From a virus: DNA of 64,000 nt. The stretch is taken from the IMG/VR virus record IMGVR_UViG_3300045988_062804. One strand, written 5' to 3'. The translations under genes were made by a program, and so were the position numbers. Shown one piece after another: positions 1 to 19,621 of the stretch (within the stretch, counting starts at the first letter, position 1; each line of letters begins with the position of its first letter). The notes beneath the pieces are model-generated. The model had not been told where the DNA came from, did no database searches, and was given only the letters and a program-made list of their open reading frames with translations.

Positions 1-2198
1 GTGGTAATCCAGTTGCAGAATTTACTATTGGGGTTCTTCCTGGTGAATTTACCTTAGATAACTGGGTTCAGAACTATGTTGGAGAGGATAAGAACATCAG
101 GTCTAAATGGCAGAGGTTAAGTAAGCTACTTGCTGATGGTAACGAGGTGGCTAAGAATGCTAGACGTACAGTGTACATCCCATTAGGAACTGACTTTGCA
201 TTAGGTCCTAATATTATTTCTAACACTAAGATTAGTAAGGTAAATGAACTTGGTCAAGACATTGACAAGTTTGGAGGGAATGTTAGAAGGACTCCATTTA
301 GTGAGTTCAAGAACGCCAAATCAAGAATAGTATCTGATGTCTTCATTATGACTAATGTAGGTGTTGATAACGATTTCTATGATAAGTCATTATCAGGTAA
401 GGCGGTCACATTCGTAACCACCAAGAAGGACTTTACCTACAAAGGAATAAAAGCTCTGAATGACCCTAATATTCTTGCAGAAGCATGGATGGAGACAAGG
501 GGAAATAAAGATGCTGACAAGTTAGACGAAGTGGTTAAGGTTGTTAAACTCGACCCAATAGGCGTCAACTTTGAGGAGTATATTAATGGAGTTAGTGCTT
601 TCAGAAGAGAGTTAGCTAATAAGACTGGCAATGCAAAGATGTTTAGTCCTCCAGGAAATAAATATACTGCTGCTCGTATCTTCATGAATTTGTTACAATT
701 TGACTTAGATTTAAAGACTGCCTTGGTTACTGGTCAAACAGTACATGGTGTATCTATTGTTGAAGGAGATAAGTTCAGATACGAAACTGGAAAGGTGGAC
801 ATACCTAGTAGTAGAGCAATAGAGCTAATTAGTAGCCTAGATTCAATGATGGCTTCTGCTGTTAATAGAATCTATGGTAAAAATGATGCTGAAAAGTTAG
901 CAACAACTAATGCAGAATGGGGACTTACTGGTGAAGTTTCTCAGGCAGCAATAGATAAGCTAAATAATGCTGTACTTAATAGGTTTGATAACTATCTTGA
1001 AAATTTGAAGAGCTATAAGGATGGAGAAATCTTAGCAGAGTTTGCTGACTCATACTCATTCACACTTGCTAAGTTATTCCATAATTACTTTGCAGAATTT
1101 AGAACAGACTCTAAGAATTATTCTTTAAGGACTGATGCTAAATCTCAGAACTTACTGAGAACTGTAACTAGGGTTCTTCAAAATTATGAGCAAAGTTCCT
1201 TTAAAGAGGGTATCTATTATACTCCTGTTTATAAGGGCAGTGCTGAAGGTGGTGGTTTAGCTACGTCAATGGCATACCCCGCTATTAATATGGTTAACAA
1301 CTTTACGGTGGATGTGGAAGCACAGACTCCAGATTTTGTTATCACTGGTGAAGCTTTGCAAAGGCTTGCAAATGGTATTGAACAATATATGTCTAGTAAA
1401 CCAACTCTAAGACCAGTAGAACAGAATTATACTATGGATAATGCTAAAGCTGTTTTAGCTGCCAAAGCTAAGTTCGAGTATGATGAACAGTTCAAGGGAG
1501 TGTTTGAGATGGCTTCTGACATAGTTGCTAAGTCAATACCAACAAATAAACCAGCTCTTGATAAGGACATTGCAAACTCAATTTATACTACTATTAAGAG
1601 GATGGTAGCTGACAGGAAAGAGGGTCTGGTAGATTCTAATACTGAAGGTTTCATTCTTAGTGTACAAGGAAATCTTACTCCACAAGGTAGTATGCAACTG
1701 AAGTTTAACACACTCGGAGGAGTACTAAGAGGATTACTTAATCAGCCAGTAACTAACATTAGTGTTGATGGAAGTGAAGGTAGTGCTTTGTATTCTGGAA
1801 AATTTGAGGTAAATTTGCAACCATATCAATGGACAATGGATAGTACAGGTAAGGTTACTTACAGTGAAATCCAAAATCCAGCTACTGATGAAAGTCAAAA
1901 AGCTGAGAACTTAGCAAAGCTTGAAGCTGAGACACAAAAGTTGGAGGCAAGAAAAGAGAAAATACTTAATGAGCTAGTTAAAGGTGTCAGTGCACCATTA
2001 GTTCCCAAAATAAAGGAAGGTATAAATATACTACTTTCTGGAGATTTAGGTACTAAGGAATACACTAGAGCTAAGGTACTAGTTGCTAAAGCATTCTCCA
2101 TGGCTCCGTCCAACTTAAAGAGTGAATGGGATTCATTGTTATCAGATTATGCTAATAACAAGGATGCCATAAATAACATATTAGGAACTTGTAATTAA
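1..2198 (+). CDS. Large protein of the virion-RNAP operon, function unknown, 5'-truncated by the window edge
   Basis: The ORF track starts this gene at GTG 147. The same frame (codons phased from nt 3) is open to the window start (GNPVAEFTIGVLPGEF...), so the gene begins upstream of the window. It ends at TAA 2196-2198. There is a C-terminal coiled-coil-like stretch (ESQKAENLAKLEAETQKLEARKEKILNEL). The only Cys in >730 visible residues is penultimate (..LGTCN*). It is co-directional with the RNAP gene and only 10 nt upstream of it. Confidence 0.8.
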   Translation, partial: GNPVAEFTIGVLPGEFTLDNWVQNYVGEDKNIRSKWQRLSKLLADGNEVAKNARRTVYIPLGTDFALGPNIISNTKISKVNELGQDIDKFGGNVRRTPFSEFKNAKSRIVSDVFIMTNVGVDNDFYDKSLSGKAVTFVTTKKDFTYKGIKALNDPNILAEAWMETRGNKDADKLDEVVKVVKLDPIGVNFEEYINGVSAFRRELANKTGNAKMFSPPGNKYTAARIFMNLLQFDLDLKTALVTGQTVHGVSIVEGDKFRYETGKVDIPSSRAIELISSLDSMMASAVNRIYGKNDAEKLATTNAEWGLTGEVSQAAIDKLNNAVLNRFDNYLENLKSYKDGEILAEFADSYSFTLAKLFHNYFAEFRTDSKNYSLRTDAKSQNLLRTVTRVLQNYEQSSFKEGIYYTPVYKGSAEGGGLATSMAYPAINMVNNFTVDVEAQTPDFVITGEALQRLANGIEQYMSSKPTLRPVEQNYTMDNAKAVLAAKAKFEYDEQFKGVFEMASDIVAKSIPTNKPALDKDIANSIYTTIKRMVADRKEGLVDSNTEGFILSVQGNLTPQGSMQLKFNTLGGVLRGLLNQPVTNISVDGSEGSALYSGKFEVNLQPYQWTMDSTGKVTYSEIQNPATDESQKAENLAKLEAETQKLEARKEKILNELVKGVSAPLVPKIKEGINILLSGDLGTKEYTRAKVLVAKAFSMAPSNLKSEWDSLLSDYANNKDAINNILGTCN

Positions 2199-2208
2199 AC
2201 AAAGAATT

Positions 2209-5200
2209 ATGCGTTGTATTGTTACTAATGACAAAAAAGAGATTATTATTGATTCGTTAAACAGTGTCTTCAATGATGCTGAATTGATAACCTTAGAGGC
2301 TAAGTTCAAGAGACTGGGGGAAGACCTTTCCCCTACTCTTGTCTTAGACGATGAGCGTTCTATAAGTGTAATATCAGACATCATCAATGAGTGGATTCCT
2401 GAAGCTAGAGATGTGGCTGAGTTGTTTGAAGATAATGTCCAACTAGCTCTATTAACTGAGTTAGAAGAAACAAAGGATTTACGAATTACTGACCTTAGAA
2501 AGGCAGGTGTAGCTCCAGCTAATAAGGCTGCTGCTAATTTAAACATGGACATTAAGGAAGAGTCTTTAATTGATTATCAAGAAAAGATTACTTCTTCTAC
2601 TATCAATAACCTATATAGAAGTGCTCAACAGCCTCGAAATCTAATGCAAGATGAGCTAAGACGTAGTGTTATATCATCATTCCTTGTAGATTTTAAAGAG
2701 GGACGAATAGTTAGAAGTTCTCAGGAATTTAATAAGAACCTAGCCGCTTTATTTAATAGGTTGCTGACAGATTTAAAGATATATGCAGAAGAGGCTAAAG
2801 TCGATTTCGACAATTCTCTACTGTTATATGACGAAGATGGTAAATATACTGGACAGTTCTCAGTTGTACAAAAGTTGGCTGATACTCTCTTTGGTGATAA
2901 GTTTAATGCTACATACCTTAATCATCTATATGCTACAAGAACAAGTAGCTTTAAGAGTTCTAAGGCATTAAGAGCATATAACTCGTATGTAATACTAAAT
3001 AACTTTGATACATTGTTAAAGACCTTACTTGGTAAGACTATAACTATTGACCAAAGATATGTAGACTCTTTTACTGATGTAGAAAATGACAAGTATAAAT
3101 TGCTTGACAATTCTAACCTAGTAAAGACATGGAGAAGTTCTGACGATGTAGATGCTTTATCTGAAATGGGTAACATCACTAAGATATTGGTAGAACAAAC
3201 TCCTGTATTACATTATTCAACTGGAGAGAATAAATTTAACAACTATTTGGAGGTAAAGGACTTTACCTATGTCTTCAACAAACTTAAGAACATTCCAATC
3301 TTCTCTGAGATAGTAAACAAAATTAGGTTTGCACCTAACAAGTTTATCCCAGAATTGATTGATACCGCACTTAAAACTAACACTAGGGGATTAACTGCTC
3401 ATGATAAGGACATTATATTCTCAGTACAAAGAAGGTTCTATAAGAACAACTTTGATGTTTATGGAGACTCTGAGTATTCTCTAACAGAGATTATCAACAA
3501 AGAGTATGCAGAAGGTAGTGATAGTGTTCTTAGTCAGAACTTAGTTGATTTTATATCTGGCATGATTGATAAGACTGTGTCTACTAATTATATTGGGTAT
3601 AGACCATCTGACTCTGGTAACATAGAGATATTTGATGTTAAGGATAACAATCTTAATAGTCATAAGTTGATTATTGAGAAAGGTATCAATAATATCAATA
3701 ACACTCTATCAACTGAGTATAGGAAAGACTTACTTGATAAGTATTCAGTTAGAAGAAATGGGGCTAAACTTAGTATTAGAATCCCAGGATATACTACTAA
3801 GAACGGTCATACACTACATATTGTTCATGCTAATAATAGCAGTAGAGGAATATCTGTGTTTACTGTTGATTCTAACAGAAATCAATCTCCTTTATCTTTA
3901 AATGAAATGGACCGCATGGTTGCTGAGGGAGATACAGACCTTGTAAGAGCTTTAACTGAGTTCTTAGATGACACCTTGTACCAATCACTTGGATTACAAC
4001 CCGAAATACTTGATGCTTTTAGAGAGATTGTAGAAGCTGGCTCTGATATAAGTGCTATAATGCAACTTGCTGCGTTAGGTGGGCGTTCTTTAATGCGTAA
4101 CCAAATAGAGAAGGAGTTAACAGATGGCACGATGGATAAGGCTTCTGTAGCTGAATGCTTCCCCGAAGCATATAGTAAGGAGACTACTCTATTCGACAAG
4201 AAAACTGGTTCACTAAAGACTGTAATAGCTGACCAAGCTAATATTGTAAGGGATTTAGCTAGGGCACGTATGTTAGTTAATGGTGAAGCTGCAAAGAGTA
4301 ATTCTCGTGACCTATCTGGTAACTCAATATCTAATAATGGTTTAACAAACCTTATTAATACTGCTAAGGTAAATTGGCTGGAAGCTAAACACCTTGCTGG
4401 ATATGGTTACAATGTAGCCTCATTAGGAAGTATCTTTGTTAAGAATCCTAACCTTATATTTGGTACTACTGTAAAGAAGGAAGCCCAAAGTAAGGATAGG
4501 TCTGTAACTAAGTCTAGTGCTAAGTTCTTCTCATCTGAAATTGCTCATAGTTCAGTTCTATATGACTTCTGGTCTGGATTCCTTAATAAGGATGGTGATA
4601 TGGCTGGTAAGTTCTATATTCAACCTACAGTATATTCAGATAAGTCGAGACATTATTTGATTGGAATTGATGGTATGCAAGTACTAACTCCAACATTTGA
4701 TGAGACTACTGGAGGTAATGTGGGAGGTAAGAGAATTACAGAATCTACTGCTGAGGATATTAGAAATGTTCACTATGCTTCTATGGCTCAGATGTACAGA
4801 GTTATGAGAACTAACTTGTTAGCTGACTATCAACAGACATTAGCTCCGATACTACCTATGTTGGGTATATCAAACATTACTACATTTAGTGATGCTGAGA
4901 GAGTGTTTGATGCTATCAATGCTAAGTATAAACTGAAGAAGGATGTAGAGTTCTTTAGGTCTAAAGGTATTCCAGTTAGTCCAGAGAATGAAGCTGAATA
5001 TCAGCAGATTATGCAGAGCCAGATGGCTTTAGCTAACTCTCCTCAAGACTTGTATATGTTACTTGCTAAGGAAGCTAATACTGAAGTTATTGACCAAATT
5101 CACTTCTCTGGTAAAGGCACTCTTGGAATTAATAAATTGTTAAAGCATTACTTTGAAATGTTCTTAGATGATGCTAAAACAAGAAGCATTTATAATGCTA

Positions 5201-8200
5201 AGGTTCTTAGAGAGAAGAAGAAATTTGCTAGAGACTTGCTCAATAACAATAAGTTCTTCTTATATGATAAGAGAGGTGAAATTGACCCTGTGTTGAATAA
5301 ATTCATACATGGTTCAAGCGAGTCTGAGAGGTATAGTATCTGGGCTGGTCCAGACTATGAATCTAAATGGGTAGACCCTGACACAGCTGAGATTATCATA
5401 GCTAAACTGGTTGACAAGAACGGTAAAGAAACGAGACTTACTAAGAACTCACTATTTGACCCTAAGGATTCTCAAGGTTTAATCCTTAATCCTTTGTTCG
5501 ATATGTTCTTTGAAGTTGACAATCTAATCTCAAGTAATTTCTTAACTTCTACTGTTGGTGGACCTTATGGTCATCCTCTTAAATCGAGGATTGATGCTAA
5601 TGCAGATGAAGTAACTAAGATTGAACAAGAGGAAGCTGCTCGTACATTGGCTCAGTTTAAGCGTATGGTTATCTATCCAGCAACTATGCATAACTACGTG
5701 CAGAACCAGTTTAATGGTATTCCGCCACAGTACAATGTTGCAACTATTAGAGATATGTCTGCTTCAGTGCATAACTTCTCTGGGGTTACATCTAAGGTGG
5801 ATGTTCAAGATGGTAGTGGTTGGGCTAATCCATTCATTGCTATATTAGAGAACTATTCTCTGAATGATGCTAAGGCTGGCGAGGATAAGAAGCCTATTGG
5901 TCATAGTATGAATCCTATGTACTTGTCTGAACTAGAGTTGAAGTATGCTTTGATGGACATCTATAATGAGCGTGTTAGAGACTCTGGAAAACCTGATAAT
6001 AAGGGCTTGAGATGGAAGAATATACTAAAGAAGATGACAGATAGACAATGGGATGTTCCTGTTGACTTAACTGTTGCCTTTAATGGTAAACCTATCAATA
6101 TAGCTGAGAATATACAGAACCCTTATTATAGAGACATAGTTACTGGTAAGTTCTATAAGATTACTGACATCAAGAGAACTGGTGATAACTTATATGACGT
6201 AACTCAAGTACAAGTTAACAAGATGGGTAACGTAATAGGTCAGCCAGAACTTAAAGGTGGAACTTCTCTTCTTATTGATACTAATTACAAGCTATGGGAA
6301 GCCTTTGGTGGAGAATGGTCTTGTGATTTAACTGATTTAGGATTATTCGAAGGTAACTCTTCTATTGAAGCAGTAGCTTGGTATATGAATAACATTGGTG
6401 TAGTAAGAAGTAAAGAAAACTCAGAAATCTATGGAACAGACTTTAAGCAGGAACTTTATACATTCGGAGAGGATTATGAAGAACTTCCTTCTGAAAGTGA
6501 AATCAGAAATCCTGATGGAACATTCACTGACTTTGCTAATCTGTCCCAGATTGAGGTGTATCAGCCTCTAAAGCATTCTGATATTCACTATCTGGTTAAT
6601 ACTAGTGGTGCTAAATGCGGTGCTACTAATATCAATCCTACAAGTTCTTGGTTTGACGATACTCCATTAAGAAGCTTTAAGATGTCTACTAGACACTTAG
6701 GCATTCAGATGGATGCTGACCACCACGCTGACGATTCAGAATTAACTGAGATGTCCCAGGTAATATCTTCATTAGAAGCCAATGGTTATACTCATCATAT
6801 TGCTAAGGAAGCATACCATGATTTAGGTTCTATTGTATATTCTACAATGAAGCGAGAGATTGATGCTGTAGCTGAGTATTATAAGATGGGTGATTCAAGA
6901 GAAATTTATAACATTGTAGGTAAGTCATTCTTAAAATCATTTGATGATAGTTCTAGCAATAAGGCTAGCTTAGCTGAAGCTATTATCTATAACATGAAGA
7001 AGGAGCTTAGTAAGTATCTAAAGATTTCAGAAGCTGATGTTAAACTACCATTTAGTGATAATAACCTATTAGGTGCTGTTATCTCTAGTGTAACTTCTAT
7101 GATTAATAAGAATGCTATCAAGAGAAAGTATCCAGGTATTGCATCTGTATTGATTCCATCACATGGTGCTATTCAAATCTATAAGGCTAATGGAATTGAC
7201 TATACTTATGGTCAAGCTCAGTTATCTAAAGTAGACTTTAATCATCAATTCAATATACAACCTATTATACCTATCACTGATATTGAGTTTGGTGAGAGTT
7301 ATGTAGTTGTTGAAGGTACTCAGGGCTATCCAGTTGATGTAAATGGTGTAGTTCCAGAAGGTGCTTCTATGTGGGATGGTGATATGCACAATGAAAGTCA
7401 GTTTAACCTTAATGTTCCTGGAGTTCAACACATTACTGTTGATTCTATTGAAAAGTATAATGAACTAAGGAATGATACTTCTGGTAGGTTAGTTAAGCGC
7501 AATCCTTATAAAGGACGTGACTTACAACCTTCCCGTACTCTGTTTAAGATTGGAGGTAGACAATATAGTATATTTGATTCTGATTCTATCAAGTCCAGAT
7601 ATGCTGTAGAGAAAGCCTTTGATAAAGGTGGAGTAATTGACTTAGCTAAGAGTGGCGATATTGATGCTGCTATTGAAATACTTAGAGGCTTTAGAGTCCC
7701 TAATGATTTGGTTGGAACTAAACTAAACGAGTTAGCAAATAAGCTAGCTAATAAGGACTTCTGGAGAATTAGTAACCTGGTTGATGATATTAAGAACCTG
7801 TATAGGGATGATGTTATCAACACATTCAAAAGGTTGTCTGCTGATGGCACTGTCATTATCAACGACGAAGTTAAAACTATCGACCCAGAATCCTTAGAGA
7901 TTAAGGAAGCTGAGTTAGTATTACCTAAAATCTATGCAACAAAGTTTGGTTTAAGAAGAGGTGACTCTCTGAATGATATAATGAAGAATGAAAACTTCTT
8001 CTATAACAGAATTATTGATGCATGGAATGATAAGACTACTAAGTATGATATTGCTCTGAAAAGAGCTAATGGTAATCATACCTATATTATTCTTAAGAGT
8101 GGAGGTAATGCTAAGGTTGTAGAAGGTTTACAGAAAGTAAATGTAAACACTATAGTCGAAGATGGTGAGAATACTCTAAGGGTTAATAACAAGGGTGAAA

Positions 8201-11200
8201 TCGAAGGTCCTCTAAACGATGCTGAGGTTTATGTTGATAGTAGAGGTAACGAAATTATCTTTACTGACAATGTTAAGCAGTTCTTAGAGGAACAGTACGA
8301 TGACTATGATGATGTAGAACTAAACTCTAGGTTAAAGGAAGGTACTCTAAATGCTGCATTCGATGTGGTTAAGGGTATTGACCATAAACTTACTGAGCAG
8401 TACAAGGAAATAGCTCTTCGTATGGAGAACAATGAGTCTGTAACTCTTAAACTTGCTCTGCAAGAGAAGAACACTCACCTTGATAGAATGTTTAGGCGTC
8501 TATCAAGAGAGAAGAGAACCTCATTCTTGAAATCTCTTGAGTTCATTGCAGCTCGTATTCCAGCTCAGTCCATGCAGTCATTCATGCCTATGAAGGTAGT
8601 TGCATTCTCTGAATCAGAGAAGAATATTGCTTATGTATCACACTGGCAGATTTGGTTGCAAGGTTCTGACTTTGATATTGATAAGGTATATCTAATGGGT
8701 TCCGAGTTCTCAGATAATGGTAAGTATATTGGATGGTCTCCTTATTTCAATCTATATTCTGATGAAGTAAGAAAGGCTTCTGAATTATTACCTATGCCGA
8801 GTGGTAAAGAATATCAGGTATTCTATCCTGATGTTCAACCAGAAGACTCATTTGATATTACTCAATTAGTTAAGAATGTTAACTTAGCAGCTAGTGATAA
8901 ACTTGGCACTAATACCAAGAGATTCATTATTGCATTGGCAGACTTACTAAAGGGTATCAGAGACAGTGGTTATACTAAGTTATGGTTAGACCCAAAGAGT
9001 ATTATTGAAGCTAACTGGATGAACTTAGATACTGTAGAGAAGAGAATTAACAGACATTCTTTATATCTATCTAAGATTAAGTCACCTGATAGGATTATTT
9101 CTATGATGAAGAACTCAGTTTCATCTAAGATTTATCGTATTATCAATGACCCAGCTAATATGGTTTCAGCTTATTCTCCGATTGAGATGAATGAGCCTCA
9201 AGCAGCAGCAGAATTATCTGAATCAGGTAAGGAAGCTAAGGAGTATACTCTGGGAAATCCATTTGTTAAGTGGAATATGCAATATCAGAATATGACTGGT
9301 AAGGATGTTATTGGTATTGCAGCTGTTGGTGAGAAGGTTTTCTTTGCATTATCTTACTATTATAATGAAGCTGCTAGAAGTGGTAACATGGAATGGCAGG
9401 AGAATGCATATTTTAGAAGGTCATTCAAGCTGATTAAGTCAAGGGATGGTAAGAAGTACCTTCCATTAGTAAGAAACATTATTGCTAATGTAAACTTTGA
9501 TGGCGTTGATACTTCTAAGGTTCTTTGGAACTCTATGATTGAACAACAATCTGGAGTTAGCATGGAAGACGCTGGTAAGAAGTATACTGAGGAGGAAGTG
9601 GCTTACATACGTGAACAGTTGTTAAGTCAGCTTGGAAGTCAAAAGGATGCATCATTAGTTATTTCAGCTCTGTTATCAGCAGCAACTGATAATGCTAAGG
9701 AGTTGATTTTAGCTAAGATTAATTCTGGTTCAGATTTAGCTTCCGTATATCTATATTCAATTATGTTGGGTATTGATTTTAAGGACATAGCTAATCTTAT
9801 GATTTCTAATACAGTTCAGACTATAGCTAAGTTAAACAAGACCAATATCTTTGATGAGTATAACCAGAGTTCAACTATTGACAGTGTGTTTAATAAGTTG
9901 GAGAATGGGTTACAAATCAAGAATTACTTGAATAAGTTTGAAGGTCTTAATGAAGCTATTGCAGCTGTTTATCCTAAAGCTGGAGGTAAATCTACTCAAG
10001 CTGCACTAACTGAAATATTCAAACAGGATAATAGGTTAGAGTTGCTCAAGAAGTTGCGAGAAGAGTTCAAGACAACTGAAATCTATAAGAACAATGGTTT
10101 CCCTAAGTTCAACCTAATGAGATTTATGAGTGATTTTGAAGAATTAGCTGTAATGGCTGACTCAATCTTTAAGAATGAGTTAAGTAGAACAGAGTATTAT
10201 ACCTTCAAGAGAATTTATAAGCTAGCTCAAGAGGTTAAGCAGTTAGGTTCTATCCTAAGTGCAAATCAGGGACTGCAGACCAATATGTTTGATAAGTTTG
10301 GTTATCTTGATAGAATCGAGCAGGCTGTAAAGGATAGAGTAGAGGAGTATGTAACTGGTGCTGGGGATAATAGGGATGTTAGTATCTTTAAAATCCTTGA
10401 AGATAAACCATATCTTGAGAAGCTACATGGCGGTAAGGAGGGTGCTAAGACATATGTCGAAAGCATTGTTAGAGCAGCTAAAACAGAAGGAATGATTGAT
10501 GACTTTAATACATTAAGGTTCTTAAATGACGATGAATATAGAAGACTTGCAGTTTCTTTCTATAATCTAATCAAGGGAACTATCAATGTGTTAGATGTTA
10601 TTACTAGAGTTCCTCACTTTAGAGCAACTATTGATATGGCAGCTACAGACTTTGGTATATTTGATGCTATTAGTGCTAAGTTTACTAACGTTTATAATCT
10701 ATCTAAACTCCTAATTAGGAATGTATATAATGTCTCTTCTAGTAAGGATAGGGATTCTATATATAGGAATGTTGGTAACTTCCTGGATAGTGTTATAAAT
10801 ACTAAGTGGTTCAAAGACAGAGGTACTTCATTTACTATAGCTGAATGTGATAGATACTTTGATAAGTATGGACACACCCATCAAGCTACAGGTAATGAGG
10901 TTATAGATTTGGGTACTGGTCATGGTCAGGCTACTTTCAAAATGTGGTTTGAGAATACAGTAGTTCCAAGTCTCAAGAGGGGTCTTCAAGAGAAGAATGG
11001 AGAGAGAAAACTATCGCTTGCCAGAAACAAGTTTATAAGTGCTCTTCAGTTATCTATCTCTGATAGAACTCTTACTCGTGATGTAAGCTACGCATGGACA
11101 CTTCCTATGAATATGTCAAGCATTAACTCTATTACCGAAATGAACAACTATGTAGAATATTTAACTCACTTTGATGAGTTGGATAAATATACGTTCAATG

Positions 11201-11745
11201 GAACTCCAGTTTCAGAGTTGTTCTTCTATTACAACATGATTGTAAATAAGAATAGGTATGGACAAACATCCTTGACAAGACTGTTTGAGCACTTTGTTGG
11301 TGAGAAACAAAACTCTGTTGTACAAGATTACTTCAAGTATATCGGAGATATGGACTTCAACAAGTTACTGAATAACTCTGACTATTCACTTGAAGATGTA
11401 ATCATGGCTTGTGCTATAACTGTTAGTGGAGGTAATTACGGTAAGAAGTTCCCCTATATTAAGGTCTTTAATCCTTTATTGCAGACTTATGAGCTGTTTA
11501 CGTATATGGGTGAATTTAACTCTTCTGAGCAGCTTCCAGATGATGTCATTGACAATCTGCCAGAGGGAGATGCTAGTGGTCCTGCTAACTACAAGCCAGT
11601 GGTCTTCCCAAATCAGAAAGAGTTGATGAACTATTTTACATGGTTACCAATGAACTTCAGCAAAGAGCAAGATGCAGAACCTCTAGAAGATAAACTGTTA
11701 AAGCTAATAAATCAAAACAGAGCAATAGTAAAGTATGAGTGCTAA
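2209..11745 (+). CDS. Giant virion-packaged RNA polymerase (crAss-like vRNAP, double-psi beta-barrel / RdRP-like) fused to ~2100 aa of unassigned N-terminal sequence
   Basis: This is an uninterrupted 3178-aa ORF. The context WLQGSDFDIDKVYLMG at aa 2154-2158 matches the DxDxD metal-binding loop described for crAss-like virion RNAPs (phi14:2 gp66 family, related to QDE-1-type RdRPs). Its size and its position in a block of giant genes convergent with the structural block fit crAss genome organisation. The assignment rests on the motif plus synteny; no alignment was possible. Confidence 0.75.
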   Translation: MRCIVTNDKKEIIIDSLNSVFNDAELITLEAKFKRLGEDLSPTLVLDDERSISVISDIINEWIPEARDVAELFEDNVQLALLTELEETKDLRITDLRKAGVAPANKAAANLNMDIKEESLIDYQEKITSSTINNLYRSAQQPRNLMQDELRRSVISSFLVDFKEGRIVRSSQEFNKNLAALFNRLLTDLKIYAEEAKVDFDNSLLLYDEDGKYTGQFSVVQKLADTLFGDKFNATYLNHLYATRTSSFKSSKALRAYNSYVILNNFDTLLKTLLGKTITIDQRYVDSFTDVENDKYKLLDNSNLVKTWRSSDDVDALSEMGNITKILVEQTPVLHYSTGENKFNNYLEVKDFTYVFNKLKNIPIFSEIVNKIRFAPNKFIPELIDTALKTNTRGLTAHDKDIIFSVQRRFYKNNFDVYGDSEYSLTEIINKEYAEGSDSVLSQNLVDFISGMIDKTVSTNYIGYRPSDSGNIEIFDVKDNNLNSHKLIIEKGINNINNTLSTEYRKDLLDKYSVRRNGAKLSIRIPGYTTKNGHTLHIVHANNSSRGISVFTVDSNRNQSPLSLNEMDRMVAEGDTDLVRALTEFLDDTLYQSLGLQPEILDAFREIVEAGSDISAIMQLAALGGRSLMRNQIEKELTDGTMDKASVAECFPEAYSKETTLFDKKTGSLKTVIADQANIVRDLARARMLVNGEAAKSNSRDLSGNSISNNGLTNLINTAKVNWLEAKHLAGYGYNVASLGSIFVKNPNLIFGTTVKKEAQSKDRSVTKSSAKFFSSEIAHSSVLYDFWSGFLNKDGDMAGKFYIQPTVYSDKSRHYLIGIDGMQVLTPTFDETTGGNVGGKRITESTAEDIRNVHYASMAQMYRVMRTNLLADYQQTLAPILPMLGISNITTFSDAERVFDAINAKYKLKKDVEFFRSKGIPVSPENEAEYQQIMQSQMALANSPQDLYMLLAKEANTEVIDQIHFSGKGTLGINKLLKHYFEMFLDDAKTRSIYNAKVLREKKKFARDLLNNNKFFLYDKRGEIDPVLNKFIHGSSESERYSIWAGPDYESKWVDPDTAEIIIAKLVDKNGKETRLTKNSLFDPKDSQGLILNPLFDMFFEVDNLISSNFLTSTVGGPYGHPLKSRIDANADEVTKIEQEEAARTLAQFKRMVIYPATMHNYVQNQFNGIPPQYNVATIRDMSASVHNFSGVTSKVDVQDGSGWANPFIAILENYSLNDAKAGEDKKPIGHSMNPMYLSELELKYALMDIYNERVRDSGKPDNKGLRWKNILKKMTDRQWDVPVDLTVAFNGKPINIAENIQNPYYRDIVTGKFYKITDIKRTGDNLYDVTQVQVNKMGNVIGQPELKGGTSLLIDTNYKLWEAFGGEWSCDLTDLGLFEGNSSIEAVAWYMNNIGVVRSKENSEIYGTDFKQELYTFGEDYEELPSESEIRNPDGTFTDFANLSQIEVYQPLKHSDIHYLVNTSGAKCGATNINPTSSWFDDTPLRSFKMSTRHLGIQMDADHHADDSELTEMSQVISSLEANGYTHHIAKEAYHDLGSIVYSTMKREIDAVAEYYKMGDSREIYNIVGKSFLKSFDDSSSNKASLAEAIIYNMKKELSKYLKISEADVKLPFSDNNLLGAVISSVTSMINKNAIKRKYPGIASVLIPSHGAIQIYKANGIDYTYGQAQLSKVDFNHQFNIQPIIPITDIEFGESYVVVEGTQGYPVDVNGVVPEGASMWDGDMHNESQFNLNVPGVQHITVDSIEKYNELRNDTSGRLVKRNPYKGRDLQPSRTLFKIGGRQYSIFDSDSIKSRYAVEKAFDKGGVIDLAKSGDIDAAIEILRGFRVPNDLVGTKLNELANKLANKDFWRISNLVDDIKNLYRDDVINTFKRLSADGTVIINDEVKTIDPESLEIKEAELVLPKIYATKFGLRRGDSLNDIMKNENFFYNRIIDAWNDKTTKYDIALKRANGNHTYIILKSGGNAKVVEGLQKVNVNTIVEDGENTLRVNNKGEIEGPLNDAEVYVDSRGNEIIFTDNVKQFLEEQYDDYDDVELNSRLKEGTLNAAFDVVKGIDHKLTEQYKEIALRMENNESVTLKLALQEKNTHLDRMFRRLSREKRTSFLKSLEFIAARIPAQSMQSFMPMKVVAFSESEKNIAYVSHWQIWLQGSDFDIDKVYLMGSEFSDNGKYIGWSPYFNLYSDEVRKASELLPMPSGKEYQVFYPDVQPEDSFDITQLVKNVNLAASDKLGTNTKRFIIALADLLKGIRDSGYTKLWLDPKSIIEANWMNLDTVEKRINRHSLYLSKIKSPDRIISMMKNSVSSKIYRIINDPANMVSAYSPIEMNEPQAAAELSESGKEAKEYTLGNPFVKWNMQYQNMTGKDVIGIAAVGEKVFFALSYYYNEAARSGNMEWQENAYFRRSFKLIKSRDGKKYLPLVRNIIANVNFDGVDTSKVLWNSMIEQQSGVSMEDAGKKYTEEEVAYIREQLLSQLGSQKDASLVISALLSAATDNAKELILAKINSGSDLASVYLYSIMLGIDFKDIANLMISNTVQTIAKLNKTNIFDEYNQSSTIDSVFNKLENGLQIKNYLNKFEGLNEAIAAVYPKAGGKSTQAALTEIFKQDNRLELLKKLREEFKTTEIYKNNGFPKFNLMRFMSDFEELAVMADSIFKNELSRTEYYTFKRIYKLAQEVKQLGSILSANQGLQTNMFDKFGYLDRIEQAVKDRVEEYVTGAGDNRDVSIFKILEDKPYLEKLHGGKEGAKTYVESIVRAAKTEGMIDDFNTLRFLNDDEYRRLAVSFYNLIKGTINVLDVITRVPHFRATIDMAATDFGIFDAISAKFTNVYNLSKLLIRNVYNVSSSKDRDSIYRNVGNFLDSVINTKWFKDRGTSFTIAECDRYFDKYGHTHQATGNEVIDLGTGHGQATFKMWFENTVVPSLKRGLQEKNGERKLSLARNKFISALQLSISDRTLTRDVSYAWTLPMNMSSINSITEMNNYVEYLTHFDELDKYTFNGTPVSELFFYYNMIVNKNRYGQTSLTRLFEHFVGEKQNSVVQDYFKYIGDMDFNKLLNNSDYSLEDVIMACAITVSGGNYGKKFPYIKVFNPLLQTYELFTYMGEFNSSEQLPDDVIDNLPEGDASGPANYKPVVFPNQKELMNYFTWLPMNFSKEQDAEPLEDKLLKLINQNRAIVKYEC
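8668..8682 (+). other. DFDID (DxDxD) putative catalytic metal-binding loop of the vRNAP
   Basis: Codons gac ttt gat att gat are in frame with the ORF starting at 2209 (aa 2154-2158). Confidence 0.65.
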
Positions 11746-12736
11746 GAACTGTACTTCTACATTGATAATTGGGGGGCTGGAATTTAAAGTCCAGTCTCCC
11801 AACGTCAATGGGAATCCTCCAATTAAAGACATTATACAGAACATAATTAAAGAACATGGTTCTGAAATTTCTAAAGCATTATCTGACCCAAAAGGTGTGT
11901 ATGAAGTACTTAACATTAATGACATATCACATTTAAGAGGTAATGCTACATTTAAAGATATTACTAAGCACCTAAACAGTTTAGGTAGGCAGTATATACC
12001 AATGAGAGATAGTTTAAGGGTATTAATATCCAAACTAAACAAAGTTGTTCCAGAGTCTGAACAGAACATTCTTTGGGTTTCATCACCCATAACACTAAAT
12101 GACGTAAAAATACCTAACGTAAATGTTAGTACTAACGGGGATTTAGTTATCCTAGACTCCAATAACCTTAATAAAGTATATAATACACTAAGGGAATATT
12201 TCTATGCTAAGACTATTAATACTCCTGAAAAGATTAATCAAATCTTATCCTTTATAGGAAGTATTGGTAAGGCAACTGACAAAATGAAATTAAAGTCTGA
12301 TGTATGGATAGCTAATCTACAGTCTAAGTTCACTGAGATGAGAAAGAATCCTGCAACAGCACTACACTACATTGTTAGTGATGATATTATAAACGAATTA
12401 GTAGACCTATCTGGAATGAGGTCAGAACTTAATACCTTGCTTAGAACATTAAGTAATGTTCAGTTAAAGGAAGGTAAAGGTAAGCAATGGTGGTTAGAGT
12501 GGAATGGTAATGCTGGAACCTATACTAATAGGAATGGTCAGCAGTTTAAGTTCAACTTTAAAGAAATGGATACCACTATTACAGGATACCTAAAAGAGAA
12601 GGGTATTGAAGCTAATGAAGAAGAAATTAGAGCTACAAAGGCTGTTCTACTAAGTGGAATATCACAAGGACATCCATTGTCAGACAACGAGATATACGAT
12701 TTATGGGACGAATTTACTAGAAAAGGTTGTGAATAA
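11735..12736 (+). CDS. Hypothetical protein of the vRNAP operon (333 aa)
   Basis: The ATG overlaps the end of the RNAP gene by 11 nt, and the stop overlaps the next start (TAATG). I recognise no motif. The only two cysteines are C6 and C332 (..RKGCE*). Confidence 0.8.
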   Translation: MSAKNCTSTLIIGGLEFKVQSPNVNGNPPIKDIIQNIIKEHGSEISKALSDPKGVYEVLNINDISHLRGNATFKDITKHLNSLGRQYIPMRDSLRVLISKLNKVVPESEQNILWVSSPITLNDVKIPNVNVSTNGDLVILDSNNLNKVYNTLREYFYAKTINTPEKINQILSFIGSIGKATDKMKLKSDVWIANLQSKFTEMRKNPATALHYIVSDDIINELVDLSGMRSELNTLLRTLSNVQLKEGKGKQWWLEWNGNAGTYTNRNGQQFKFNFKEMDTTITGYLKEKGIEANEEEIRATKAVLLSGISQGHPLSDNEIYDLWDEFTRKGCE

Positions 12737-14385
12737 TGGCTTGTATTAATCATAATGATATAACATATAGAACACTTCTAGAACTTTCTGGATTAACCCA
12801 GTTAGAGCTTGATGCAAAGGTAAGGAAGATACTAGAGACTACTGGGGAATACCCATTTATTGAACAAGTAGTATCTTCTGACACAATACCTGCATTAGTA
12901 AAGAAGTATAATTTAGTCAAGTCGGGCGATAGATATGTTGCTAAAGATGTTGACTTAGAAGGAGTGGATGCGCCCTATTTAAATAGCATCTATAGAGACT
13001 TAGAGATAACGATAACTCCACTGTTTGATGGAGAATCCCTAGTAGACATCAAGAGGAGGGCTACTATAAATAGGGATTTAGAAGTAGAAGAAGATTATGT
13101 AGGACCTTATACTGAGCATAATAGTAATATATTCCCTCAACCTATTCAGGTAATTAATGGAAACTACATCTATCAGCATGATGGTAATTACTACATATCT
13201 AAACACAAAGTAGGAAGTTATACTGCATTAAGTAATCTACCAAGAACAAAGAACTTGAAGACAGCTTATTCCAAAGCTACTCCAGTAAACACTAAGTATG
13301 AAGTTAATAGAGATGTTCTTAGGTTTATATCGGACTATAGTAATTTATTGTCTGCAGGACAAAATGCTATATATAATACTAATTCAGAACTTCCACCAAT
13401 TATATCATATTATGGCAATTTTAACTATCCTAAGTTCAAAGTTGATACAACTCTTAAAGGCAAGTATGACATTAATGAAGAGGGTACTATCCTAATAAAT
13501 CCAAACAAAGTTGGAACTGAGCCTAAAGCATTAGAGAGGGCTATTCTTGAGGCTGAAGGCTTCTATAGTGAGACAGAGATACTTGAAGCACTAAATAGAC
13601 TTACTAACCCAATTAAAGTTGAAACGTTAAAAGTAGATAACAACCAATATTTATTAAGGTCTACTAATAAGGATAATAAACTTAATAATTATTACCCAGA
13701 ACTTTCTAATGGTAATATAAGAATCAATAAACTTGAAGCTATGTTGGATAGACTAACTGACTTATATGGGGTTAAATTCAATAGAGTTACAAGTTCAGAA
13801 TTGAGGTTGGGAGGGTTTAAGGATGTAATTCCAGATGCTACTAGAGTCAATGCTTTCATACTTGATGGAGAAATCTATATCAATACTGATAACGCAAGTG
13901 ATGATGCTCCTATTCATGAGTTGTCTCATATGTTGCTTGGTTCACTAAAGTCTACAGACTATAACCTATACTCAGCATTAGTAAACTCCGTAGAGAATCT
14001 TGATGATTATGATTTGAGGCTAGAGGAGTTCCCCAATAGAGCTAGAATGGATGCTAATGAGGAGATATTCGTAGACCTGTTTGCCAGACACTTTACAGAG
14101 AATTTGGAATTACCAGTTGATGCTAATCTAATGGATAGGGCAGAATATGAAATTAAGAGAAATATTGACTCAGCCATCTTCCCTAATGAAAGTACAACTA
14201 AAGTTAGTCTAAATAGTATCAGTGGTAAATCGTTCTCTGAAATCATGGACTTATTTGGAACATCTATTAACGAAACCACAATAGCTAATGCTTTTAATGG
14301 TAACGAATCAGGAACTAACAGACGACTAGCTAATATTAAAGAAGATTTATTAAAACAAGGATTATTAAAAGAGTATTGTGAATAA
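12736..14385 (+). CDS. Zincin-like metallopeptidase-motif protein (549 aa)
   Basis: It carries the HExxH motif DDAPIHELSHMLLGS (H394-H398), with a Glu 22 residues after the second His (..NSVENLDD), which is gluzincin-like spacing. Zn-peptidase domains are reported to accompany the RNAP module of crAss-like phages. The only two cysteines are C3 and C548 (..KEYCE*). Both ends are TAATG-coupled. Confidence 0.55.
   Translation: MACINHNDITYRTLLELSGLTQLELDAKVRKILETTGEYPFIEQVVSSDTIPALVKKYNLVKSGDRYVAKDVDLEGVDAPYLNSIYRDLEITITPLFDGESLVDIKRRATINRDLEVEEDYVGPYTEHNSNIFPQPIQVINGNYIYQHDGNYYISKHKVGSYTALSNLPRTKNLKTAYSKATPVNTKYEVNRDVLRFISDYSNLLSAGQNAIYNTNSELPPIISYYGNFNYPKFKVDTTLKGKYDINEEGTILINPNKVGTEPKALERAILEAEGFYSETEILEALNRLTNPIKVETLKVDNNQYLLRSTNKDNKLNNYYPELSNGNIRINKLEAMLDRLTDLYGVKFNRVTSSELRLGGFKDVIPDATRVNAFILDGEIYINTDNASDDAPIHELSHMLLGSLKSTDYNLYSALVNSVENLDDYDLRLEEFPNRARMDANEEIFVDLFARHFTENLELPVDANLMDRAEYEIKRNIDSAIFPNESTTKVSLNSISGKSFSEIMDLFGTSINETTIANAFNGNESGTNRRLANIKEDLLKQGLLKEYCE
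13915..13929 (+). other. HELSH (HExxH) zinc-binding motif
   Basis: Codons cat gag ttg tct cat are in frame with the ORF starting at 12736. Confidence 0.55.
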
Positions 14386-17300
14386 TGGCAAAGTGCGGAT
14401 ATACTCTATTAGGAAGGTCATTTGGCTCTGAGTTAGAATTGAACAACTTCCTACTTAACAATAAACATAGTATAGACCTTGGTAGAATATCTGATATAGT
14501 GTTTAGTCTTAATACTAAGAAAGACGAAGTAGTATCTATATTAGATGGTAAACTATCATGGGCTACTAAAATCCAGAGTATTAAGAGAAATCCTAATTCA
14601 TTCCTGGATGATGAAGATATAGACCCAGAATCGGTGAAACCATATAAAGGTGTTACATCTGCAATAAAGTTATTTAGACAAGCAGATGGAGTAACCAGAT
14701 TTGTGCCTGAGTTCAAGATAGAGAACTTCAAGGAGAAGTGCTTTGAAAGGTGGGGTAAGGATGGGTTTAGTGCAATGGAAGCTAAATTGGTTGGTAAAGA
14801 GCCAGGTGTTCCAGTAAAAGAGAATGAAATGGAAGGAGCTTTCAAAGCACTAACTACCAAGTGGGACTTACTTGGTAAAGTTGGTACTTCACTTCATAAA
14901 GTAGCTGAGTTATTCTGGAAGGGTGAAAGTTTATCAGCTATAGTGCAGGATGATGAAGTTAAGAACTATCTTGACCCAGTAATGGCTTCTCATATGTATA
15001 GTAACATGGAAATACTGAGAGACCAGTTAATTAAGCTACATGGTAACGGAGACCCCAATAGTGTAAAATTCTACCCAGAGTACGTAGTTGCTGGAGACAC
15101 TCAAGCCACTGACGATAATGGTAATCCTATCAAACTACTTGGTATTATTGACTTGTTGGTAGTTGATTCTGATGGGCAAGTACACATATATGACTACAAG
15201 ACTTCTGATAAAGCTCACGTTGATTTTGATAGTACTAAGAAATTAACATTCGATTATCAGTTAGCTGTTTATAGGCAGTTATTAGAGAGCTATGGATTAC
15301 CAGTAAGTAGGGCTATGATGGGTATTATCCCACTATCAATGCAAGACTTTGATGGAACTACTGGTAACTTCTCCAACATTACTGCACCTATTACTACTGT
15401 AAATGGTGTAAAGGAAATCAACATTGATTATAGAGATAGAAACCCAAGGCTATCCTATGATAGTGCATCTGCCTTTGTAACCAATAACGTTGAAATGGTT
15501 ATGCCTGTAGAGCCTGTTGAAGATATAGTTACTAAGGACTTTGTTGAGCATATGAGTACTGGGTTTGCTAAACTATTCCCAGGATATAAGTTTAACAGAG
15601 AACTAAATGAAGCTACATTAGAAGCTCTTAAAAGGGATGTGAGATATAATGCATCTACTGGTAAGTGGACTCTTCCAGACTTAAAGAATCCAGGTAAGAC
15701 TCTAACATTTGATACTCAAGCAGAAGCATATAAGGCTCTTGAAAGTTATCACGAATCTTTGTTAAGCTCTAAGACGAGAGCAACTGAAAGGTTGATTGGT
15801 AATATTAGAACTGCTATTAATACTGGTAATACTAACTTCTTACCCCTATCCAATCGTAAGATTAAGGGACACAGTGCAGGTTGGTTTATTAAGGAATGTA
15901 GTAGGTACTGTAACTCTGAATGGAAGGTAATGGATGTTCCAGAATTAACATCTTTAGGTATAATGCTACTATTTAATAAGAGAGCTAAATACTTTGACGT
16001 GTTAGTACTTGATAACACTCCATTGAAGACACAGCTTAAATTCAAGAAGGGTACTTCCGTTCTTGGTGAATATGCTTCTAACGTAGAACTAGAACAGAGG
16101 GGTATCCTGGCATTGGAGGGCATTGTAGGTAATGTTGACCTAATGAAAGCTATGCTAGCTTTAAATGAACTTCCAGATTTATTCAGGGAAGGTAAGTTTA
16201 AATTAGGTGAGATTAGAGTTCTTAACCAAAAGGATGAAACTGGTATGCACACTAGTGCTTGGCAGTTAATGCAGAACTTTAATGAGCTTACTAAGAATGG
16301 TAGGGCTGGTGTGGATAATAACTTTACTACTGGTAAAATACAGTTCTTAGAGAATTATCAATTAGCATACTACAATATGATTCAGTTCTGTGCCTTAGGT
16401 AAAGAGCAGAGTAAATTGAATAATGTACTGTCAGAGTTTGAGACTAATCCAATTATTCTTGACCATTCTATAGAGAACCTAATAAAGATGAAGAAGATGT
16501 TAGAGCAGGAATATCCTAATTTAACTGAAACTAAGACTACAGATTTCTCTTCACCTCCTGGAATTGTATATGGCTACCTACTTAAAGCTATTAAGGATTT
16601 AAGAGGTATGCACTATGTACAAGAAGTTAGGGATGGTAACAAAATAGTTCTACTAACTGATAACCCAGATGTGATGGCATCAGCTAACCTTAGAAATATG
16701 TATAAAGTAACCACTGACGGTCTTGTACATCTAAGAACTAATCTTAATAACTTTGCTGCTGAAATGCGTACTGCTATGGAGAAGTTCTGGAAAGCTAAGG
16801 GATATTCTACTGAAAGAAGGAATCTTATTGGTGACCAACTATCACTATTTAAGAATATGTTTGTTACTGATAGAGATGGCAAGATTGATAGTAGAATGAG
16901 GGTTAAGAGTCCATTTGTTGATAGAACATTAGATGCTGCTGAGAAGGAGTTCCTAACATTCTGGCTGGATAAACTAAACAGATACAGGTATCAAAATATG
17001 TCTGAATCTGACTTAGAGGAAATGAGATTAGACCCTGATAGTGAATACTATAATGTACCATTAATGGAAGCTAGCTCAGCTACTAAGGTACAGGAAGGTG
17101 GTAAGGGATTAATATCCTGGTTTAAGAGAAAGGTAGACCAGTTTAGAAATCCTAAGGAATGGGCAGATAGACTAATCACTGGTGCTTTGGACTCAGAGCA
17201 TAATGAGCAGTTAAAGGAGGATATGGAAAAGTATGAGATGATTGATATGTTTGAGTATAGCGATAATGCAACATCAAGAAGTAATGCTTTAGAAGAGCAT

Positions 17301-19004: not shown

Positions 19005-19621
19005 TGATTATTGGAATTTCTGGAAAGAAACAATGTGGTAAGGATACCGTATGCAAAATTATTAAGGCATTAGATATATGGAATAGGTACGGAGATGGGG
19101 ATATGCATACATTTGTAAAGATGTTACTTAAGAGTCCAAGTCCTTTAGGCAGTATATGGTACAAGCACGCATATGCTGATAAACTTAAACAAGTCTTAGC
19201 TATTATACTTAACGTAAATGTTAAGGCATTCGAGGATAATATATTTAAGATGTCTAACAGTGAGATAGCTAAACCAGAGGGAGGATATTATACTAATAGA
19301 GAACTTCTACAGAGATTTGGAACTGAGGTAGGTAGGAGTATATCTCCAACATTGTGGGTAGATGCTTTATTCATGGGCTACAGTGAGGACGACCACTGGA
19401 TTATTCCAGATGTTAGGTTTCCATCTGAAGCTGAAGCTATTAAGGAAAGGGGTGGTATAATCATTAGAGTAGATAGGGAAACCTTCTCTCGTGATACCCA
19501 TCCATCTGAAGTGGCATTGGATAATTATGAAGGTTTTGATTACAGAATAGATAACAATAACGATATAGAACATTTAATAGATAGGGTGAAAGGGATAATG
19601 TCCCAACTAAACCTTATATAA
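19004..19621 (+). CDS. Deoxynucleoside monophosphate (dNMP) kinase
   Basis: The N-terminal P-loop MIIGISGKKQCGKDTV resembles T4 gp1 (..LSGVKRSGKDT..). Size is 205 aa. Later motifs (VRFPSEAEAIKERGGIIIRVDR) are typical of phage dNMP kinases. A dNMP kinase is a known crAss-family gene. Confidence 0.7.
   Translation: MIIGISGKKQCGKDTVCKIIKALDIWNRYGDGDMHTFVKMLLKSPSPLGSIWYKHAYADKLKQVLAIILNVNVKAFEDNIFKMSNSEIAKPEGGYYTNRELLQRFGTEVGRSISPTLWVDALFMGYSEDDHWIIPDVRFPSEAEAIKERGGIIIRVDRETFSRDTHPSEVALDNYEGFDYRIDNNNDIEHLIDRVKGIMSQLNLI

Follow-up and report, generated by a model that had tools for sequence, protein, structure and literature searches.

Crassviruses are the most abundant viruses of the human gut. 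In the virion of crAss001, mass spectrometry found gp47, gp50 and gp49 as cargo associated with the virion RNA polymerase (RNAP); this cargo, which is unresolved in the published cryo-electron microscopy (cryo-EM) maps, must partly unfold for exit, and the order of its ejection depends on interactions between the cargo proteins (PMC10172136). Inter-subunit disulfides were observed experimentally in the same virion, and cryo-EM places them between different proteins (gp57 dimer; tail hub-ring proteins; R1-R2) (PMC10172136). Here we describe a regular placement of cysteines at the ends of putative cargo proteins, first in a 64,000-nucleotide (nt) stretch of viral DNA (IMG/VR record IMGVR_UViG_3300045988_062804; the window) and then throughout the order Crassvirales. 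The proteins concerned are encoded one after the other on the plus strand of the window: ORF1, the RNAP, p333, p549 and p1539. The disulfides of crAss001 come from the same viral order, but they join folded shell or tail domains and are neither at chain ends nor in the ejected cargo.

Two other described systems are close to this module. Parts of it are fused in p-crAssphage (gp44), cr1_1 (gp076), cr109_1 (gp53), cr7_1 (gp32) and Flavobacterium phage Fpv1 (gp33), which keep homologous domains in the same order. These phages, however, join the two parts by a peptide bond and lack cysteines there, and separation would need a protease rather than reduction. The fused versions are probably cleaved into their components, and a zincin may activate the RNAP (Drobysheva et al. 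preprint). The second system is phage N4 (Schitoviridae), whose megadalton-scale virion RNAP gp50 is a "beads on a string" protein passing loosely folded through a channel of ~35 Å (PMC13434306). Its N-terminal domain, RNAP, HExxH domain and large helical domain parallel ORF1, the RNAP, (p333), the HExxH protein p549 and p1539 of the window, and the N4 ejection proteins are free of cysteine. By contrast, gp50 is a single polypeptide, hence without junctions and without terminal cysteines, and its polymerase is T7-like, not the two-barrel DFDxD enzyme. Homology between the N4 and window proteins is not claimed.

The window carries the putative virion-packaged RNAP cargo module of a large crAss-like phage, probably of the epsilon group, whose large phages are described in PMC11054128. 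By analogy with crAss001 and phi14:2, for which mass spectrometry was reported, we assume that its proteins are packaged and ejected. An earlier note on this DNA had placed cysteine codons at the extreme ends of the five proteins, and on re-reading the window all eight positions were correct (Table 1). In gene order, the proteins carry a terminal cysteine at the C-terminus only, at both ends, at both ends, at both ends, and at the N-terminus only. Wherever two members of the module meet in the window, each of the two ends has a single cysteine, no more than six residues from the terminus (up to 10 in relatives). Elsewhere cysteine is scarce, as had been claimed: the visible part of ORF1 has 1 in 731 amino acids (aa), the RNAP 7 in 3178, and p333 and p549 have 2 in 333 and 2 in 549, so that the terminal pair is the only one in these two. 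The last protein, p1539, has 7 cysteines in 1539 aa and none close to its C-terminus. No minus-strand protein of the window has the two-ended pattern, and the cysteine content of the minus-strand block is 1.15% vs 0.30% in the five plus-strand cargo proteins. Taking the higher minus-strand frequency, and counting residues 2-6 as N-terminal and the last 2 residues as C-terminal, hits at four N-termini and four C-termini would arise by chance with a probability of ~3e-12. The complete ORF1 could be read from contigs that are 100% identical across the visible part. It is 2,896 aa long, its single cysteine is the penultimate residue, and its N-terminus (MDNKKPNDW) has none; the two proteins encoded upstream of it contain no cysteine.

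The earlier note had proposed an alignment of orthologues as a check, and about 95 distinct related loci follow the same rule. Its observation on this operon was right but too narrow in scope, as the rule is order-wide. A search with p549 gave 163 homologues. Nearly all of the 120 listed (340-790 aa, down to ~32% identity) start with M-x(1-3)-C-[ILV]-N and end with L-x-E-x-C-x(0-2), and an alignment of 83 sequences has 20 invariant columns, which include C3 and C548 as well as the catalytic H394, E395, H398, E442 and E443. The 12 database clusters of p333 (73-98% identity) all have exactly two cysteines, both terminal. Beyond these clusters p333 has one distant relative, a protein of 954 aa in locus L014 (phmmer 7.5e-18), which has a cysteine at both ends: it ends ..DGNC* and begins (M)ANNCIPK from a GTG start overlapping the upstream stop. 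Within the lineage of the window, 41 distinct syntenic loci were compared, many of which read TAG as Gln. The C-terminal cysteine of the RNAP is present in 40/40 of them, and the large last protein starts with M-x(1-2)-C in 41/41. The exceptions seen for the zincin protein are start miscalls, due either to GTG starts that overlap a stop or to an internal Met.

Across the order, a scan of IMG/VR with the catalytic region of the RNAP gave 80 loci, of which the 54 distinct ones were counted; A denotes the first protein of the module, B the RNAP and C the last protein. The A protein has a C-terminal cysteine in 37/37 loci, and in 29 it is the single cysteine of the part visible in the locus. In the whole material, named phages included, none of the 12 first proteins with a readable N-terminus has a cysteine there. 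For B, the N-terminal cysteine is found in 43/49 (the exceptions are three second halves of interrupted genes and three A+B fusions) and the C-terminal one in 50/53 (two broken open reading frames (ORFs) and one B+C fusion). The C protein carries an N-terminal cysteine in 48/51, with the exceptions explained by start-codon miscalls or a cysteine at position 9, and a C-terminal cysteine in 0/50. Control ORFs of the same loci have an N-terminal cysteine in 30/341 and a C-terminal one in 80/384. The rule also holds in crAss001, DAC15, IAS virus, phi14:2, p-crAssphage, crAss002, cr1_1, cr109_1, cr7_1 and Fpv1 (Table 1 for crAss001 and phi14:2). The four terminal cysteines of the phi14:2 module are its only ones in 5,398 residues. 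Fpv1 gp33 has one cysteine in 4,401 aa, at position -2, and gp34 starts MAC. In nearly all architectures, the number of C-terminal cysteines equals the number of N-terminal cysteines and the number of protein junctions. The terminal cysteines are invariant in homologues down to ~30% protein identity; the C-termini of 23 A proteins were too divergent to give a usable alignment.

Natural fusions and insertions localize the pattern to the junctions themselves. Two giant proteins, of 4,461 aa (L146) and 4,631 aa (L167), are A+B fusions by phmmer and have a lone cysteine, at the C-terminus. The B+C fusions identified in the same way, L156 (3,903 aa) and p-crAssphage gp44, have an N-terminal cysteine and none at the C-terminus or at the internal junction. 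Conversely, the separate proteins inserted into the series (p333, the zincin protein and the second RNAP piece of L012/L014) each have a cysteine at both ends; p333 and the zincin protein belong to mutually unrelated families, each of which obeys this two-ended rule. Fusion thus removes the junction pair and insertion brings both cysteines, and the pairs therefore track polypeptide junctions. In two-protein systems (A+B / C; A / B+C), only N-to-C pairing is left, if the two cysteines pair together. The pattern is independent of gene adjacency: where A is encoded on the strand opposite to B and C, as it is in crAss001, DAC15 and most Steigviridae-like loci, it keeps its C-terminal cysteine.

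The rest of the chain is nearly free of cysteine. Over the 54 loci, the internal density is 0.12% in the giant proteins vs 1.7% in the other ORFs, a depletion of ~14-fold. Because the internal cysteines have been purged, the retained terminal ones stand out as deliberate. Such depletion is the pattern expected for proteins that unfold and thread a channel after exposure to oxidising conditions. The ejection proteins of N4 (L173, EF056009 34400-50000) have 0 cysteines in 4,294 aa (gp50, 3,500 aa; gp51, 644 aa; gp52, 150 aa), and proteins that phages inject may exclude cysteine in general. PMC2823432 describes exported proteins of Gram-positive bacteria as cysteine-depleted; these cross a channel unfolded into an oxidising milieu. 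That case differs in being cellular secretion, without retained terminal pairs.

Table 1. Terminal cysteines, cargo genes and motifs of the window, followed by the corresponding proteins of crAss001 and phi14:2
Feature	Position in window	Strand	Details
ORF1, first chain member	3..2198	+	C-terminal 731 aa; window begins inside gene
Cys codon TGT	2190-2192	+	ORF1 position -2, ..GTCN*
Virion RNA polymerase (B protein)	2209..11745	+	3,178 aa; homologue of crAss001 gp50, phi14:2 gp66
Cys codon	2215-2217	+	RNAP residue 3, MRC
RNAP catalytic DFDID motif	8668..8682	+	residues 2154-2158, within LQGSDFDIDKVY
p333, lineage-specific extra cargo protein	11735..12736	+	sole Cys: residue 6 and -2
Cys codon TGC	11740-11742	+	RNAP last residue, ..KYEC*; overlaps p333 codons 2-3
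Cys codon	11750-11752	+	p333 residue 6, MSAKNC
Cys codon	12728-12730	+	p333 position -2, ..GCE*
p549, zincin-like (HExxH + EE) protein	12736..14385	+	Cys residue 3 and -2
Cys codon	12742-12744	+	p549 residue 3, MAC
p549 HExxH motif	13915..13929	+	residues 394-398
Cys codon	14377-14379	+	p549 position -2, ..YCE*
p1539, last chain member	14385..19004	+	1,539 aa; Cys residue 4, no C-terminal Cys
Cys codon TGC	14394-14396	+	p1539 residue 4, MAKC
crAss001 gp47 (A)			2,341 aa; 1 Cys, at 2339, ..ALRC(NS)
crAss001 gp50 (B)			2,412 aa; C5, C1334, C at -9; (M)SKRC.., ..DKIC..
crAss001 gp49 (C)			1,349 aa; 1 Cys, C5, (M)AKKC..
phi14:2 gp078 (A)			1,797 aa; 1 Cys, last residue, ..NTIC
phi14:2 gp077 (B)			2,180 aa; 2 Cys, residue 3 and -2; (M)AC.., ..QECK
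phi14:2 gp076 (C)			1,421 aa; 1 Cys, residue 3, (M)SC..

We propose that the C-terminus of each cargo protein is linked to the N-terminus of the one that follows, with disulfides as the most likely bonds, to give a reducible pseudo-polyprotein comparable to the single cysteine-free chain of the N4 virion RNAP, and we put the probability of this reading at about 0.6. From the cysteine positions we infer that the junction cysteines touch, that the chemistry is that of a disulfide, and that the link serves co-packaging or ordered ejection. A disulfide is preferred because such bonds between subunits have a precedent in the crAss001 virion (PMC10172136), because the purge of cysteines points to oxidative exposure, and because a pair of thiols is not enough for a metal site. 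A further hint comes from net charge relative to controls, which is basic (+1.0) at cysteine-bearing N-termini and acidic (-0.65) at cysteine-bearing C-termini. The C-terminal cysteine of each protein would pair with the N-terminal cysteine of the next, and the intermolecular disulfide would form inside the non-reducing particle. The product would be a linear, covalently continuous thread of ~8,500 residues. Since the link would lie at the chain ends, a junction would be scarcely wider than one polypeptide and therefore able to pass the portal and the tail channel. Internal cysteines, in this proposal, are kept out since they could form stray cross-links, which would prevent the chain from unfolding and threading. 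Once in the host, the links would be opened by the reducing cytoplasm, and the proteins would part and refold. Lineages with fused genes would achieve the same continuity through a peptide bond, for which the literature proposes proteolytic cleavage. This picture agrees with the partial unfolding and the interaction-dependent ejection order stated for the crAss001 cargo (PMC10172136), with the probable cleavage of fused versions and the possible zincin activation (Drobysheva et al. preprint), and with the single N4 chain, whose domain order the genes of the window mirror (PMC13434306).

Among the three readings offered by the earlier note, the head-to-tail chain is favoured by the end-member pattern, the junction counts and the loss of cysteines on fusion, which concern the arrangement; the bond itself is a proposal. 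The idea that the cysteines are relics of processing sites in an ancestral polyprotein is partly right as history, given that fused versions exist and are described in the literature as probable polyproteins. It is disfavoured as an explanation, because invariance is not what relics would show and because the cysteines are missing from the fused versions. The third reading, an intramolecular staple, is taken up below.

A stronger form of the head-to-tail proposal is possible, although we lean against it: the cargo would be a redox-cleavable train of ~0.6-1 MDa, packaged as a unit with 1:1 stoichiometry, ejected in the order of the links and reduced in the host, with fusion plus zincin cleavage taking its place elsewhere. 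Each protein would then pull the next through the tail, and total exclusion of cysteine, as in N4, would be the solution for a single chain.

Several points weigh against the head-to-tail linkage. The cytoplasm in which the particles assemble is reducing, and oxygen is absent from the gut lumen. One clade (L051-L067 plus L064; 7/41 distinct relatives) has an extra cysteine at -9 of the last protein (for example L054 10639-15471, ..ILNCINQSLQED*), and in these loci no downstream plus-strand gene is able to supply a partner for it. The cargo-like proteins encoded upstream of the RNAP module in p-crAssphage (gp47 and gp48; L086) and crAss002 (gp30; L089) have a lone C-terminal cysteine (..GGKQSCR*, ..YRCGGHRR*, ..FRCGGKKKIA*) with no evident N-terminal partner. 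The conserved C-terminal cysteine of the zincin protein is followed by another 19-100 residues in the L012-L014 clade and in a few proteins from the databases. Proteins with two cysteines could in principle cyclise or polymerise. In addition, the N-terminal positions rest on predicted start codons. The net charges given above were computed across related sequences with kinship ignored.

The best surviving alternative keeps the head-to-tail topology but lets the junction cysteines share a metal ion (Zn, Fe or Cu), in a link that could arise in the reducing cytoplasm or persist in the active enzyme complex. The parity, fusion and strand arguments fit such a bridge equally, it needs no oxidant in an anaerobic host, and the near-invariant Glu two residues ahead of the C-terminal cysteine in the zincin family (E546) is a possible extra ligand. 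We nevertheless consider it unlikely: a stable tetrahedral site needs more than two thiolates, most families have no other conserved Cys or His close to the termini, and a purge of internal cysteines is expected for proteins exposed to oxidation, not for metal sites.

Binding to some other partner is rather improbable. Here the terminal cysteines would bond to an inward-facing cysteine of the portal, the capsid or the tail, or to a second copy of the same protein (tail-to-tail or head-to-head dimers), and so anchor or meter the cargo. Many disulfides are present in the crAss001 tail (PMC10172136), and the unpaired C-terminal cysteines of p-crAssphage gp47/gp48, of crAss002 gp30 and of the last protein in one epsilon clade would find a partner. 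The equality of N- and C-terminal counts in nearly all architectures, the missing first N-terminal and last C-terminal cysteines, and the simultaneous loss of both junction cysteines on fusion would, however, all be left unexplained.

It is very doubtful that the cysteines serve the zincin protease, whether as a cysteine switch that holds until ejection or as marks for terminal processing. An HExxH motif does lie 150-215 residues before the C-terminal cysteine in p549, crAss001 gp47, p-crAssphage gp45, crAss002 gp32 and Fpv1 gp33, and activation of the RNAP or cleavage of fused polyproteins by the zincin has been proposed (Drobysheva et al. preprint). Most of the cysteine-bearing proteins, however, have no HExxH (RNAP, p333, p1539, crAss001 gp49 and gp50), and the A proteins of DAC15 and phi14:2 have lost HExxH and kept the cysteine. 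A matrixin-type cysteine switch was rejected on the same grounds: the cysteine and the catalytic zinc are mostly in different chains, and the cysteine outlasts the loss of HExxH.

The staple, in which the N- and C-terminal cysteines of one protein would close a loop, accounts for the RNAP, p333 and p549, each with one cysteine per end. It is unsupported because the end members of the chain bear one terminal cysteine, often the sole one in 1,300-4,600 residues (ORF1, phi14:2 gp078/gp076, crAss001 gp47/gp49, Fpv1 gp33), and a closed loop would have to traverse the tail channel as a doubled chain. We give it very little credence.

Even less probable is thiol ligation, in which a trimmed N-terminal cysteine would attack a C-terminal X-Cys acyl-thioester and yield a peptide-linked giant protein without an intein. 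The geometry resembles native chemical ligation, with a cysteine near (not at) the N-terminus and Cys-x(0-3) as leaving group, and residue 2 is usually small (Ala, Ser, Gly), which permits Met removal. On the other hand, the N-terminal cysteine sits at 3-7 and would require extra trimming, C-terminal overhangs, which reach 9-10 residues and in one clade 19-100, would leave poorly, and the residue ahead of the C-terminal cysteine varies (Y, I, F, Q, V, E, P, G and others). Split inteins share with our loci a cysteine where separately encoded parts of a giant protein meet, and split and fused forms that alternate among relatives. Inteins and split inteins were rejected, with no match to the Pfam Hint domain, no His-Asn, and only 0-10 residues beyond the cysteine.

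The p333/p549 (12723-12749) and p549/p1539 (14372-14398) junctions share 14 identical nucleotides, TTGTGAATAATGGC, with a TAATG stop/start overlap, and therefore a nucleotide signal had to be excluded; the next junction after p1539 (19004) reads TTGAATAATG. Chance, or a nucleotide-level junction signal such as translational coupling, is refuted despite this shared sequence and the gene overlaps of 1-11 nt, because the window probability given above is so small and because the cysteines are invariant, use both TGT and TGC, lie at varying distances from the end (residues 3-7 at N-termini, -1 to -10 at C-termini) and persist in loci whose partner genes converge from opposite strands. Selection on the protein, which the earlier note had inferred from codon and spacing differences, is thereby upheld. 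A bacterial lipobox was also rejected: it needs a signal peptide of ~15-25 residues and L-x-x-C, and the cysteines here stand at residues 3-7 behind Met.

Terminal cysteines with intermolecular functions are known from animal viruses. In the hepatitis B core protein, Cys183, the last residue, makes an intermolecular disulfide in the particle, and in adenovirus the pVIc peptide is disulfide-bonded to the viral protease through a cysteine at -2. These bonds are homotypic or join a protease to its cofactor, with no head-to-tail series and no ejection through a tail. The statement in the earlier note that no description of the pattern was known agrees with our literature searches, which covered little of the subscription literature. 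Full-text searches that paired Crassvirales with cysteine or disulfide, or ejection proteins with disulfide, returned nothing relevant. The crystal-structure preprint has zero occurrences of cysteine or disulfide, the crAss001 atlas (PMC10172136) does not discuss cargo cysteines, and terminal cysteines are not described in the papers on epsilon-group genomes (PMC11054128) and N4 (PMC13434306).

As to the individual proteins, the window RNAP matches crAss001 gp50 (blastp E=2.6e-7) and carries the catalytic DFDxD motif of two-barrel RNAPs. Its counterpart phi14:2 gp077 is the solved virion RNAP (PDB 6VR4; gp66 of the module gp65-gp67 as numbered by Drobysheva et al.). PHROGs and Pfam returned nothing for ORF1, p333, p549 and the RNAP, megablast of window positions 11000-15000 against GenBank phages found nothing, and tblastn with p549 and p1539 gave just 1-3 unannotated records. 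Window ORF1 and p1539 agree with crAss001 gp47 and gp49 in synteny and size, but not as one-to-one orthologues: ORF1 has no significant match to gp47, and the PD-(D/E)XK nuclease domain of p1539 (residues 165-303) matches a region of gp47 (E=6e-6), not gp49.

In p549, HExxH and a downstream Glu ligand, as in gluzincin-type metallopeptidases, are invariant in the 83 sequences, and the protein is therefore zincin-like. It consists of an N-terminal domain (1-110), an insert (132-313), a catalytic domain (331-511) and a C-terminal helix plus tail. In the AlphaFold2 model (mean predicted local distance difference test score 83.5), the N-terminal cysteine stands immediately ahead of the first helix of the confident N-terminal domain, and the C-terminal one lies in a low-confidence coil past the last helix. 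Foldseek of this model against the PDB gave nothing at E<=0.001; the best relevant match was 3c37, a Zn peptidase, at E=0.63. The zincin also differs in place, being a separate protein after the RNAP in the window and not the C-terminus of the A protein. A p549-family profile found no match among the A proteins of the reference phages (hmmsearch), and in hhalign the HExxH and EE motifs of the p549 family and the crAss001-type A zincin align, but because this comparison reached only E=0.12, homology is not claimed. Some B and C proteins from other lineages begin with the same N-terminal module as p549, C-[IV]-N-K-[NS]-S-x-E-[FY]. Nine relatives of p549 (538-790 aa) match Pfam PF18760 (ART-PolyVal ADP-ribosyltransferase), one of them (P0100) also PF01966 (HD). 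Both terminal cysteines are present in 8/9 of them; in the remaining one, P0097, the called start is truncated. Variable effector domains may be a feature of this family.

Start codons and the genetic code matter for reading these loci. In L012, L014 (~7095-7125), L054 and L064 (~9590-9610), GTG starts overlap the upstream stop (..TGT GGN TAA as GTG G..) and restore an N-terminal M-x-x-x-C that ATG-only calls overlook. In crAss002 gp33 (L089 17088-29825), an internal Met gives MSCTPSN.., like MSCGNIK.. of p-crAssphage gp44, and the annotation probably sets the start 32 codons upstream of the true one. In most of the distant relatives (many of L012-L074), the giant ORFs are intact only with TAG as Gln (code 15), and in the clade with the extra cysteine at -9 the RNAP gene contains many recoded TAG codons; the window keeps to the standard genetic code.

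The RNAP gene is interrupted in L051, L058, L065, L073, L074 (~5.2-6.6 kb), L122, L131, L137, L006 and L009. Some breaks fall inside the catalytic motif (..LQGSD / FDID..) and others at ..IGYRV / PT.., and no cysteines are found at the break points. Epsilon-type interrupted loci have an ORF of 228-234 aa within the gap. In L006 and L009 (4688-5234), whose p549 is 91-92% identical to that of the window, there is an insertion of ~550 nt that the window lacks. These interruptions look like introns or homing-endonuclease insertions.

Downstream of the cargo operon, the window encodes a deoxynucleoside monophosphate kinase (19004-19621; PHROG 139, E=9e-45) and, at 19719-20429, a protein that contains an HNH endonuclease domain; both lack terminal cysteines. 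Convergent with the operon, a minus-strand gene (22751-27442) encodes a protein of 1,563 aa with 12 cysteines. It matches PHROG 15100, a virion structural family whose profile has 1,783 positions, the length of Fpv1 gp30 (1,783 aa), and it may be the muzzle protein. Among the minus-strand neighbours, those with a PHROG or Pfam assignment are an endolysin, a tail-fibre-like protein and this muzzle-like structural protein; most others have none. Near the module of p-crAssphage (L086), gp39 and gp37 are annotated as a thioredoxin and a truncated thioredoxin, which could bear on the thiol chemistry.

The structural papers leave open how crassviruses store several megadaltons of cargo and pass it in order through a narrow tail. 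The terminal-cysteine rule predicts which chain ends touch, and in which order, throughout Crassvirales, including the cultured crAss001, DAC15 and phi14:2. It aids start-codon calling, also at GTG codons overlapping the stop of the preceding gene, makes cargo modules easier to spot in metagenomic phages, and hints at how foreign proteins might hitch onto the cargo train. Disulfide cross-links in virions are a known kind of bond; what is new is the proposal that they concatenate different ejected proteins end to end, and if confirmed this would be the first case of different ejected proteins concatenated head-to-tail. If true, it would join the split and fused crassvirus modules, the single chain of N4 and the exclusion of cysteine in one principle. 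Should the redox-cleavable train itself prove to be real, it would amount to a general design rule for proteins injected by phages.

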